DNA from: Candidatus Woesearchaeota archaeon
GTDB taxonomy: Archaea; Nanobdellota; Nanobdellia; Pacearchaeales; JAHJTO01
Reading direction: 5' to 3'
Length of the DNA stretch: 64,000 nt
Assembly: GCA_964540065.1 (NCBI GenBank)
Contig: CAZIKY010000001.1
Coordinates: 78,798-142,797 of the forward strand
Both the position numbers and the translations under genes were made by a program. Within the stretch, counting starts at the first letter, position 1. The number at the start of each line of letters is the position of its first letter. Positions 7,530-10,710 of the stretch are shown one piece after another. The notes beneath the pieces are model-generated. The model ran no database searches and had not been told where the DNA came from. It was given only the letters and a program-made list of their open reading frames with translations.

Positions 7530-7553
7530 CCCAAAAATCACACTAATCCTATG

Positions 7554-7653
7554 CTCCCGTAGCTCAGCTTGGATAGAGCAATTGCCTTCTATTTCGAAGA
7601 AAATACCGAAGGAGCGAGCAATAGGTCGCAGGTTCAAATCCTGTCGGGAGCGT
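7554..7653 (+). tRNA. tRNA-Arg (anticodon TCT) with a 25-nt intron between positions 37 and 38
   Basis: Manual cloverleaf: acceptor GCTCCCG/CGGGAGC, D-stem GCTC/GAGC, anticodon stem ATTGC/GCAAT, loop CTTCTA|intron|A, T-arm GCAGG-TTCAAAT-CCTGT. Intron is tttcgaagaaaataccgaaggagcg. Mature length is 75 nt. Confidence 0.8.
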
Positions 7654-8692: not shown

Positions 8693-9709
8693 TCATGCAT
8701 TACTCTGCATTATTTCTGAGGAATAATCCAAGGTTTCTGCTATTCCGCCGGAATTTACAATTTCGAAAAATTTTGGAAAGTTGATGTATCTTTTTCCACT
8801 AAGATCCTTTCTGATAAGGCAAGCAACATTTGACGGTTGGTGAGAGCTTATTACTTCATAATTGCCTAGTTCTTTAGCAAGCCGGTCAGAGAAGTCTAGA
8901 ACTTCTTCGTGCCAAGGCATTTCTTGGACAGTATGGACTTTTTGCGCTGCTCCGACCCAGACATAACCTTTCACTTCGATAAAATCTGGATTGCCCCTTT
9001 TAATCAATTCAGCATATTGACTGATATTGCAGTCATTCCAGCCCTTCACCAAGGTAAGCCTTATGCAAGTCCTGAATTTCTTCTTAGCCATTGCGTCTAG
9101 GGATGCAAGCAGTCGCTCATAATAATCTGGGAAAAGAGGCCGGTCTATCTTCTTGAGATCTTCTTTATTAGGGGCATCAAGTGAAATGTAAAGCTGAGTT
9201 ACATTTTCAAGCTTTTCTATCTGCTCTGGGAACTGAGCATTAGTCACGAGAAAAGTAGATATTTTTCTCTCATGAAATTTCTTCAAAAGCTCATTTAGCC
9301 TAGGATAGGTTATTGGCTCACCCGTAAGTGAAAGGGCGACATGCCTTATGCTGTTGCTCTGATTATAAAACTTAGCTTTAGGATTTCCCTTAAATCCCAA
9401 AAGCAGGTCAAATTGCTTTTCAATCGAATTATCAATAATAAAATCAGGTTCATCAACTGGTCCATACCAATTCTTCGAAACTGGAGCTTTTTCTCCCCTC
9501 CAGCAGAAAGTACACCTATTAGCACAAAACATAGAAGTGGTCATCTGAAGGCACTGATGGCTCCTAATTCCATAGAACTTGAATTTATAGCAGCCCCCTT
9601 CTCCCCTAACCATTTTCTTTGTCCACTCACAAACTTTGACGGCACTGTGATTCCCGACAAGACGGTATGACTGTTTTTCAAGCTCTTTTATCTGAGATTC
9701 ATTAAGCAT
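8693..9709 (-). CDS. taw1: Radical-SAM tRNA 4-demethylwyosine synthase (Taw1/TYW1-like)
   Basis: 338 aa. CxxxCxxC motif (CANRCTFCWR) plus upstream Cys residues. Length and layout fit archaeal Taw1. Confidence 0.65.
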   Translation of the reverse strand: MLNESQIKELEKQSYRLVGNHSAVKVCEWTKKMVRGEGGCYKFKFYGIRSHQCLQMTTSMFCANRCTFCWRGEKAPVSKNWYGPVDEPDFIIDNSIEKQFDLLLGFKGNPKAKFYNQSNSIRHVALSLTGEPITYPRLNELLKKFHERKISTFLVTNAQFPEQIEKLENVTQLYISLDAPNKEDLKKIDRPLFPDYYERLLASLDAMAKKKFRTCIRLTLVKGWNDCNISQYAELIKRGNPDFIEVKGYVWVGAAQKVHTVQEMPWHEEVLDFSDRLAKELGNYEVISSHQPSNVACLIRKDLSGKRYINFPKFFEIVNSGGIAETLDYSSEIMQSNA

Positions 9710-10445
9710 TTTGCATCTTTAGCTCGCCTTTGGAAGATTCAAGTCTTAAGGCATCATTAATGTTAATCATCGGCTGCCTTAGATTAACTATATCGTCATA
9801 ACCAATTCTTGGGCAGGCAGTATTCACCCAAGCTTCAACAAACGGGAAGTTTTCAAGTTCGCGCATATCCAAAGTATCCCCCACAAAAATGAAGAAGTTC
9901 TTTCCAGATTTAGAACTTTCTTTTAATTTGAGTGCAGTATTAAGATACTGCTGGCCAGTCTTAGTGCTCACCAAAACCCCGATGTTTTTAGCATACATAT
10001 ATCTCAGAATATTGGCCCGATATTTTTTCACTTGTTTATCTATATCCTTTTGGGTTAAAATCTTAACAGAGTTCGAAATAGGGTCAAACAGGATTACATC
10101 TTTCTTGACTTCGTTATCTTTCTGTGCAAGAAGCAGCGCTTTAGGATGGAATAGACCATCTCCAACATAAAGGAGCACATCGGCCTTATCAAAGATCTCC
10201 CTATCTACAAAAGAATCCAAAAAGCAATCGCACCCCAGAATTTGGTTCTCTGCAGAAGTCCTCTTAGCATGCGAAGTTAAAACATTTACCCCTGCGTCTT
10301 TCAATTGTTTCTTAACCTTATCCAGTTTCACAAATTGGACTGCAGCGAAAACTGCAACATCTTTATATTCAGATAAAAGCTTAAGAGCCTCTTTTGAAAG
10401 CTTGATCTCCTTTTCATAAAAAGCTTCAATAAACAAGAACTTCAT
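9702..10445 (-). CDS. dph2: Diphthamide synthesis Dph2 (2-(3-amino-3-carboxypropyl)histidine synthase), C-terminal fragment covering domains 2-3
   Basis: Matches archaeal Dph2 segments (ENQILGCD, GDGLFHP, IGVLVSTKTGQ, TACPRIGYDD). Its ATG (10445..10443) lies 1 nt after the TAG stop of the N-terminal fragment. The ORF track extends the frame upstream to 10502 via an alternative start. Confidence 0.7.
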   Translation of the reverse strand: MKFLFIEAFYEKEIKLSKEALKLLSEYKDVAVFAAVQFVKLDKVKKQLKDAGVNVLTSHAKRTSAENQILGCDCFLDSFVDREIFDKADVLLYVGDGLFHPKALLLAQKDNEVKKDVILFDPISNSVKILTQKDIDKQVKKYRANILRYMYAKNIGVLVSTKTGQQYLNTALKLKESSKSGKNFFIFVGDTLDMRELENFPFVEAWVNTACPRIGYDDIVNLRQPMININDALRLESSKGELKMQNA

Positions 10446-10446
10446 C

Positions 10447-10710
10447 CTACCACTCCACCGCCTTGACATATTTATTATGGCCAAATCCCACGACAACATC
10501 AACTCCTAAAGCATTGACCCCTAAAGGAAGATCACATGCTCCGAAATTGCTTCCAAACCATACCAAAACTTCGGCTCCCGTAGAAGATTCCAGTTTTCTC
10601 ACTATCTCTGCAGTTTTCACCTTCAAGCCATCAGGTAGCTGAAGCAAAACTCTTTTGCATTTGTTTTCTTTGATAAAGTCAATAACTTTCTGTTCATCAA
10701 GTTTGTACAT
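10447..10710 (-). CDS. dph2: Dph2 N-terminal fragment (domain 1), a separate ORF
   Basis: 87 aa resembling the Dph2 N-terminus (KRVLLQLPDGL ... GACDLP ... GFGHN). Ends in TAG at 10449..10447, then a +1 frame ATG starts the remainder. Confidence 0.7.
   Translation of the reverse strand: MYKLDEQKVIDFIKENKCKRVLLQLPDGLKVKTAEIVRKLESSTGAEVLVWFGSNFGACDLPLGVNALGVDVVVGFGHNKYVKAVEW

Follow-up and report, generated by a model that had tools for sequence, protein, structure and literature searches.

The window, by which we mean the whole 64-kb stretch of DNA analyzed here, carries dph2 as two consecutive open reading frames on the minus strand, with no segment of archaeal Dph2 absent. The upstream frame, dph2N (10447..10710, minus strand, TAG stop within these coordinates), encodes an 87-aa protein, MYKLDEQK...GFGHNKYVKAVEW, that is the N-terminal piece of Dph2 and comprises most of domain 1, including the first Fe-S ligand, Cys59 (TGT, 10536-10534, minus strand). 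At its C-terminal end lies a clade-conserved motif, GHN-x-Y-x-K-x-x-E-W. The downstream frame, dph2C (9702..10445, minus strand), encodes the 247-aa C-terminal piece, which opens MKFLFIEAFYEK... and contains the inferred last strand of domain 1 together with domains 2 and 3. The other two Fe-S ligands, Cys72 (TGC, 10232-10230) and Cys211 (TGC, 9815-9813), are encoded here, both on the minus strand.

The junction (10443..10456, minus strand) was read directly from the sequence. A Shine-Dalgarno (SD)-like GGAG within the end of dph2N (10456-10453) is followed by the terminal Trp codon TGG (10452-10450; the protein ends ...VEW), the TAG stop (10449-10447), a single g as spacer (10446) and the ATG of dph2C (10445-10443), all on the minus strand. 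The layout given in the initial annotation, two adjacent frames of 87 and 247 aa joined by TAG-g-ATG, thus stands, on the minus strand. The GGAG falls within codons of conserved residues. The mechanical list of open reading frames offers an alternative dph2C start, a TTG at 10502, which would give a protein of 266 aa. This 19-aa extension was rejected, as it has no ortholog support and all orthologs begin at a Met aligned with the ATG at 10445. Downstream of dph2C lies a taw1/TYW1-like radical-SAM gene for wyosine base formation (8693..9709, minus strand; PF04055 and PF08608). The ATG of this gene and the stop of dph2C overlap by 8 nt, and the two genes therefore probably share one operon. A taw1/TYW1-like gene is found downstream on the same strand at 22 of 80 related loci, and likewise at locus L083.

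In the Dph2 profiles the two halves match adjoining segments, in agreement with the initial proposal that the second frame is the rest of archaeal Dph2. Positions 1-59 of Pfam PF01866 are covered by dph2N and positions 64-286 by dph2C, both above the gathering score; in TIGR03682 the corresponding ranges are 2-65 and 72-297. By profile score the match to Dph2 is far beyond chance, because the E-values are 1e-20 and 9e-42 for the two halves and 1.7e-62 for their concatenation. Taken singly, the halves score 57.0 and 143.3 bits against TIGR03682, both below the equivalog cut-off of 202.8, while the concatenation exceeds it (211.5 bits) in a single stretch, with residues 18-323 aligned to positions 2-297 of 308. 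When the concatenation is aligned with three full-length Dph2 proteins of solved structure, the alignment continues through the junction, and the lengths differ by no more than 1-3 residues. The family is therefore that of archaeal Dph2, 2-(3-amino-3-carboxypropyl)histidine synthase (TIGR03682 / arCOG04112; Pfam PF01866). A comparison of domain 1 with domain 2 gave no significant internal repeat (hhalign, E about 0.24), and a motif search of the 64-kb window returned no match to the EF-2 diphthamide loop.

Where in the fold does the break lie? Using an alignment of 34 full-length homologs, the concatenated N and C pieces were modeled as one chain with AlphaFold2 (pLDDT 88.4, pTM 0.83). The three-domain Dph2 fold is present in this single-chain model, and the 15 best Foldseek matches in the PDB are all Dph2, with query-normalized TM scores of 0.72-0.86 over about 330 columns (0.80-0.86 for 14 of the 15). 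In the model, the break falls in the loop of residues 78-89, which connects strand 3 (72-77) to a strand at 90-94, the latter corresponding to dph2C residues 3-7. DSSP assigns these residues to a strand in the concatenated model, while in a model of the C piece alone they are coil of lower confidence. We assigned strand 90-94 to its domain from the order of secondary-structure elements in the model and from the comparison of the DSSP strings of the two models. The break thus probably lies in the loop before the last strand of domain 1, with that strand supplied by the C half, and probably not, as had been proposed, exactly between domain 1 and domains 2-3.

Dph2 holds its [4Fe-4S] cluster with three Cys ligands, one per domain (Cys59, Cys163 and Cys287 in PhDph2; PMC11048331). 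The initial annotation had asked whether both pieces keep these ligands, and all three are kept: the motifs GACD (dph2N Cys59), LGCD (dph2C Cys72) and TACPR (dph2C Cys211) align with those of 6bxm, 6q2d and 3lzc. The three cysteines, one in the N half and two in the C half, are invariant across orthologs. Relative to locus L083, dN is 0.20 for the N half and 0.29 for the C half; dN/dS is about 0.09 and 0.13, respectively, values that show only that dN is much lower than dS, as dS is saturated (>2). Because functional residues are invariant and dN is much lower than dS, the sequences indicate that strong purifying selection acts on both halves.

A survey of related genomes extends the same arrangement well beyond the window. 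A 79%-identical relative found in the same sample shares this geometry in other bases, TGG-TAA-t-ATG, and in a 64-71%-identical relative the frames overlap in an ATGGTAA junction. We then considered 79 species-level loci, the window included, from Woese-, Pace- and Nanoarchaeota genomes that contain both halves. In all 79 the halves are separate frames on the same strand, N upstream, with the same break point, and none is fused; the comparison with related genomes that had been suggested at the outset therefore returned the same split throughout. The profile edges are correspondingly tight, the N piece ending at position 84-87 of 87 (85-87 in most) and the C piece starting at 1-3, always with an ATG. 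The C-terminal residue of dph2N is Trp in 73 of the 79. Spacing is more variable. At 58 loci the halves are -7 to +69 nt apart, the commonest class being the +1-nt spacing (15 of the 79), and at the other 21 they are separated by 133-1221 nt. Most of these gaps hold unrelated frames (LMW-phosphatase/ArsC-like, UDG-like and hypothetical, as named by eye without a profile test), while no convincing frame was seen in the three shortest (133-144 nt). The halves are independent cistrons, separable by other genes.

Protein database matches are consistent with these counts. Among 427 homologs of the N piece, the best 120 are all 80-108 aa long, down to 44% identity, and the best 120 homologs of the C piece are all 208-276 aa; no fused ortholog was found among these two sets. 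Of the 150 best N-piece matches among 50%-identity representatives, 92 are no longer than 135 aa. An exact look-up with the 87-aa protein gave no match, even though the same contig encodes it. A second conserved split site was considered for the representatives of intermediate length (136-290 aa) and found to be unsupported, as these look like heterogeneous fragments.

Could the break be an error of sequencing or assembly? The true gene would then be one frame of about 335 aa and the TAG-g-ATG artefactual, and a one-base change near the junction would indeed join both frames. However, an independent Logan assembly is identical over 8.4 kb, the junction contains no homopolymer, a related strain and 78 other species are split with different nucleotides and spacings, and the closest 120 + 120 database matches include no fused ortholog, all of which makes an indel vanishingly improbable. 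Alternatively, recoding might produce a single fused Dph2, by a +1 frameshift at the TAG here or by read-through in in-frame orthologs. Ribosomes are known to shift frame at slow stop codons (prfB, antizyme), and a +1 shift at this TAG would read AGG-ATG-AAG, fusing the halves as ...VEW-R-MKF... into a protein about as long as unsplit Dph2. Against this, re-pairing of tRNA-Trp from UGG to GGU is unfavorable. Moreover, among the 58 adjacent pairs the three possible frames of C relative to N occur 26, 23 and 9 times, so that no recoding frame is conserved; the junction sequences vary without a conserved slippery motif, the downstream ATG is retained at every locus, and the 133-1221 nt that part the halves at 21 loci mostly contain whole genes. 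Recoding is thus very unlikely, and with varying frames and junctions and an ever-present ATG, the locus was not classed as a programmed ribosomal frameshift gene.

A recent frameshift pseudogene, in which dph2 is decaying in a reduced genome that has stopped making diphthamide, was also considered. DPANN genomes are reduced, and some archaeal lineages have lost the dph genes (PMC6143161). However, lineages only 40-56% identical share a break at the same residue, catalytic and ligand residues are invariant in both halves, dN is much lower than dS, each half still has a proper ATG and a stop codon, and the N piece has a conserved C-terminal motif of its own, with Trp as the last residue. Decay is therefore extremely unlikely, and the label of frameshift pseudogene was rejected for a break that is clade-wide in a sequence that is constrained. 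Of the three explanations put forward in the initial annotation, the genuinely split gene was the right one, and the recent +1 frameshift pseudogene and the sequencing indel are refuted, given the identical independent assembly, the 79%-identical relative that splits with different bases and the break common to all 79 loci.

We conclude that this is very probably an ancient, genuine and functionally maintained two-cistron dph2. For DPANN archaea of the Woesearchaeota/Pacearchaeota type, from which the window comes, this arrangement is the normal one. How would such a gene give rise to a working enzyme? Each cistron would be translated separately, and translation of dph2C is probably coupled to that of dph2N by the TAG-g-ATG junction, with its 1-nt spacer, and by the GGAG 8-11 nt upstream. 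The junction geometry plausibly suits coupling or re-initiation. An SD-like 4-mer precedes the ATG of the C piece in 43 of the 58 adjacent pairs, compared with 12 of the 79 N-piece starts. Across this window, SD motifs are not clearly enriched (19% vs 15% background); we therefore regard coupling here as plausible only and do not claim SD dependence. The contrast across species is the clearer signal. The two polypeptides would then join non-covalently into one Dph2 protomer, in which the first beta-strand of dph2C would complete the beta-sheet of the dph2N domain. In a two-chain protomer the [4Fe-4S] cluster would be ligated by both chains, the small one contributing a single Cys and the large one two. 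Two such N + C pairs would be the equivalent of the usual Dph2 homodimer and would transfer the 3-amino-3-carboxypropyl group from SAM to the conserved EF-2 His. That the proteins are made, associate, hold a cluster and modify EF-2 we infer from conservation and modeling.

On balance, we lean towards viewing the split as a synapomorphy of the whole Woese-/Pacearchaeota radiation, one that yields a two-chain radical-SAM-type enzyme, with its cluster held across the Cys59 / Cys72 + Cys211 interface and with beta-strand complementation between the chains. The new, almost invariant C-terminal Trp of dph2N may act as a clasp between them. In the literature we found no description or test of the cross-interface cluster, the strand complementation or the Trp clasp.

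The existence of a split dph2 is already known and has been published for DPANN archaea (PMC3655853, PMC6143161, PMC6349945). Narrowe et al. 2018 report separate genes for the N- and C-terminal domains of Dph1/2 in DPANN archaea (PMC6143161), and the summary by Dombrowski et al. 2019 lists split Dph1/2 in some Parv-, Pace-, Woese- and Altiarchaeota (PMC6349945). These authors had to concatenate the halves for phylogeny (PMC6143161, PMC6349945), and Narrowe et al. warned against using the split gene as a completeness marker (PMC6143161). Measured against those accounts, the window is a further instance of the same phenomenon without essential difference. The break point, junction geometry, intervening genes, terminal Trp and cross-chain ligation worked out here are absent from the descriptions of the split in these sources (PMC6143161, PMC6349945). 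Podar et al. 2013 (PMC3655853) count DPH2 among the split genes of nanoarchaea: in the Yellowstone nanoarchaeon Nst1 it likewise consists of two genes, Nst 222 and Nst 440. As their distant gene numbers indicate, the Nst1 halves are non-adjacent, whereas those in the window are 1 nt apart. Nanoarchaeum equitans, another DPANN archaeon with a reduced genome, offers the same kind of event in reverse gyrase, AlaRS, RNA polymerase B and other genes, where a conserved protein that is otherwise one chain is translated as two separate pieces. Its halves are usually scattered and many of its splits are lineage-specific, whereas the dph2 split spans a very broad clade, in which the two genes mostly stay side by side and often overlap.

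Unsplit archaeal Dph2 (P. horikoshii 3LZC/3LZD, Ca. Methanoperedens 6BXM and M. smithii 6Q2D) matches the same profile as the Dph2 of the window, has the same fold of three domains and likewise uses three Cys ligands, each in a different domain. These proteins are single chains of about 330-340 aa that form a homodimer, while the window encodes Dph2 in two frames, and they lack the conserved Trp that marks its new C-terminus. [quoted passage not shown] Its subunits, however, are full-length paralogues of three domains each, whereas the window encodes one protomer in two pieces, and the window Dph2 scores 38.7 against the eukaryotic DPH2 model TIGR00272, far below the cut-off of 184.

What does the split mean for these archaea? 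It does not overturn current understanding. In practice, these genomes will be miscounted by annotation pipelines and by completeness estimators built around a single Dph2 marker. The pair is also a natural test of whether the three-domain cluster site of Dph2 tolerates a two-chain build, which is of modest interest to radical-SAM enzymologists. The common break point may be a rare genomic change that marks the Woese-/Pacearchaeota clade, and if the two-chain reading is true, the step at which the chains assemble could serve to control diphthamide synthesis.

Dph2 is encoded in the window by two adjacent minus-strand ORFs. The 87-aa dph2N (10710..10447) ends in GFGHNKYVKAVEW and a TAG stop at 10449-10447; a single spacer nucleotide, g, at 10446 precedes the ATG (10445-10443) of the 247-aa dph2C (10445..9702), bearing out the TAG-g-ATG junction described in the initial annotation. 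An SD-like 4-mer, GGAG, lies on the same strand at 10456-10453, positions -11 to -8 from this ATG. An alternative TTG start at 10502 appears in a mechanical ORF list, with an extension backed by 0 orthologs. The two pieces match consecutive profile positions, 1-59 and 64-286 of PF01866 and 2-65 and 72-297 of TIGR03682 (diphthamide-synthesis family). Joined as one chain, they align through the junction with the Dph2 proteins of Ca. Methanoperedens (6bxm), M. smithii (6q2d) and P. horikoshii (3lzc), as in GHNKYVKAVEW/MKFLFIEAF (slash at the junction) versus GHTPLPLKYE-VPTLFIEAF of a solved full-length Dph2; the larger ORF does match the remainder of the archaeal protein. This concatenation scores 211.5 and passes the NCBIfam equivalog cut-off of 202.8; each half alone falls below it. 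The gene is complete but cut, with no segment absent between the halves.

Is the cut a sequencing indel, a recent +1 frameshift pseudogene or a genuinely split gene, the three options initially offered? These 8.4 kb recur at 100% identity in a Logan assembly of run SRR5011273, where genes of 87 aa and 247 aa are again called. In that run a second organism (L082, Logan SRR5011273_391025, 1-200; C piece 79% identical) carries the junction ...LEW-TAA-t-ATG-AAA (TGG-TAA-t-ATG), like that of the window in geometry and unlike it in stop codon and spacer base; two related populations with split dph2 therefore share the sample. In a 64-71% identical relative (L083) the junction overlaps, ACATGGTAAAA, the C-piece ATG overlapping the Trp codon and stop. 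An independent assembly and the same split with other junction bases in both relatives thus contradict an indel, which we reject. A recent pseudogene is likewise rejected, since the split is common to relatives, both halves are constrained and the ligand cysteines are kept. One genome per GTDB species was scanned, yielding 80 loci, with each half located by its own profile against all stop-to-stop segments. At all 79 loci with both halves (78 plus the window) these are separate ORFs on the same strand, N piece upstream, broken at the same profile position; a fused dph2 was found in 0/79. The ortholog comparison proposed in the initial annotation thus returns the same split throughout. Comparison of the window with L083 gives dS > 2 and a dN of 0.20 for the N piece and 0.29 for the C piece; because dS is saturated, the ratios of ~0.09 and ~0.13 indicate no more than dN << dS. 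All three Fe-S ligands, singled out earlier for inspection, are retained: the equivalents of PhDph2 Cys59, Cys163 and Cys287 (PMC11048331) are Cys59 of the N piece and Cys72 and Cys211 of the C piece, which align with the ligand motifs of solved structures and are invariant among orthologs. In a 5.8-billion-protein collection, the best 120 N-piece matches are all 80-108 aa (44-100% identity) and the best 120 C-piece matches all 208-276 aa, named sources among both being Woesearchaeota, Pacearchaeota or Nanoarchaeota. Among the best 150 N-piece matches to 50%-identity cluster representatives, 92 are <=135 aa and 34 are full-length proteins of >290 aa, the latter only at 35-46% identity. The split is real and conserved, and the gene is probably functional.

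Could one polypeptide still arise by a conserved frameshift or read-through? Measured between the last base of the dph2N stop and the ATG of the C piece, the spacing is -7 nt at 13 loci (ATGGTAG, ATGGTAA or ATGGTGA overlap), -4 nt at 2, -1 nt at 4, 0 nt at 3, +1 nt at 15 including the window, +2 to +8 nt at 14, 12 to 69 nt at 7 and 133 to 1221 nt at 21. The C frame relative to N is distributed 26/23/9 over the three possibilities in the 58 adjacent pairs. Most of the 21 wide gaps hold ORFs of unrelated kinds (L020, L021, L022, L033, L049, L055; also L064, L070, L075, L008, L009, L012), labelled by eye rather than by profile match as LMW-phosphatase/ArsC-like, UDG-like, DUF1016-like or small hypotheticals. 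The LMW phosphatase/ArsC-like ORF, with a CRANxGRSQ motif and likewise named by eye, occupies the gap at 6/21; the three shortest wide gaps (133-144 nt) contain no convincing ORF. These varied spacings, frames and intervening ORFs rule out a conserved frameshift or read-through, and the halves are independent cistrons.

Several gap ORFs overlap the dph2N stop. At L080 (2944-3657) a C piece has no N piece within 3 kb upstream, and the halves may lie farther apart, as in Nst1; at L077, where the N piece is missing too, the C piece sits at a contig edge, so this locus is uninformative. The C piece of L012 (2881-3687, a Woesearchaeota MAG) carries a ~29-aa internal direct duplication, KEIMLGNEVIGFLKKEKIKSIALFASVQ twice, which is a genuine tandem duplication or else a product of misassembly. 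That of L002 (3001-3885) occupies two stop-to-stop segments, profile positions 2-238 and then 201-240 again, suggesting a disrupted or duplicated 3' end. Contigs labelled 'uncultured Methanosarcinales', 'Patescibacteria group bacterium', 'Acidobacteriota bacterium' or 'Paceibacterota bacterium' (L010, L013, L014, L028, L038, L039, L056, L057 and others) carry DPANN-type split dph2, which points to probable mislabelling or contamination of the bins.

In 43/58 adjacent pairs the C-piece ATG is preceded, at 4-18 nt, by an SD-like 4-mer, against 12/79 of the N-piece starts. Since SD use shows no obvious enrichment across the window's own genes, translational coupling of dph2N and dph2C is here reasonably inferred rather than demonstrated. 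A taw1/TYW1-like radical-SAM gene (8693-9709, minus strand) starts 8 nt inside the dph2C end (ATGCTTAATGA). A taw1-like gene also follows dph2C on the same strand in 22/80 related loci (among them L003-L007, L010, L021, L025, L034, L036, L048, L051 and L060) and in L083, as would be expected if two radical-SAM-type enzymes that modify the translation apparatus share a conserved operon. Elsewhere in the window, a 100-nt tRNA gene at 7553-7652 (plus strand; Rfam 58.3 bits), missed by ARAGORN, has the anticodon UCU (Arg) as read from the alignment; past the start of the anticodon loop it carries 27 inserted nt, which would fit an archaeal intron at 37/38.

The N piece has gained a conserved C-terminus of its own, GHN[KR][FY]xKxxEW, with Trp as final residue in 73/79 loci; full-length Dph2 proteins lack a conserved Trp at the corresponding site. 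An AlphaFold2 model of the concatenation as one chain (alignment of 34 full-length homologs; pLDDT 88.4, pTM 0.83) superposes on solved Dph2 structures with TM 0.80-0.86. It places strand 20-24, helix 27-44, strand 47-50, helix 65-68 and strand 72-77 in the N piece, followed by loop 78-89, of lowest confidence in the N-terminal half, with the junction between residues 87 and 88; then come strand 90-94 (C-piece residues 3-7), helix 105-111 and the next beta-alpha unit, 116-122. By this order the N piece has only three strands, the next coming from the C piece. Modelled alone, the C piece has residues 1-17 as coil (first ten residues, mean pLDDT 72); in the concatenation, 90-94 is a strand and block 91-100 averages pLDDT 90. 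A DSSP strand call requires a hydrogen-bonded partner; as the strand forms only with the N piece, that partner would come from the N piece. The C piece would thus donate the last domain 1 strand by strand complementation. If so, the cut would fall in a surface loop just before strand 90-94 rather than exactly between domain 1 and domains 2-3, as placed earlier. A profile-profile test of an internal repeat was not significant.

Beside the observed gene structure, conservation, ligand retention and fold compatibility, we infer co-translation, assembly, a cross-chain cluster and activity. One operon, probably including the overlapping taw1, would yield two Dph2 polypeptides, a small and a large chain, which would come together as a Dph2 protomer. 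Its [4Fe-4S] cluster would be held by one Cys from the small chain and two from the large, and two such chain pairs would replace the usual homodimer.

Earlier publications record a split DPH2 for the nanoarchaeon Nst1 (genes 222 and 440; Podar et al. 2013, PMC3655853), give an account of split Dph1/2 in DPANN archaea (Narrowe et al. 2018, PMC6143161) and name the split for some Parv-, Pace-, Woese- and Altiarchaeota (Dombrowski et al. 2019, PMC6349945). The split being already published, the window adds one more instance to a known case. The texts returned by literature searches gave, in the portions available, no account of the universality of the break (79/79 species), the range of junction geometries or intervening genes, the conserved terminal Trp or the likely strand donation. 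The sole mildly novel angle is the structural consequence, a predicted cluster ligated across two chains.
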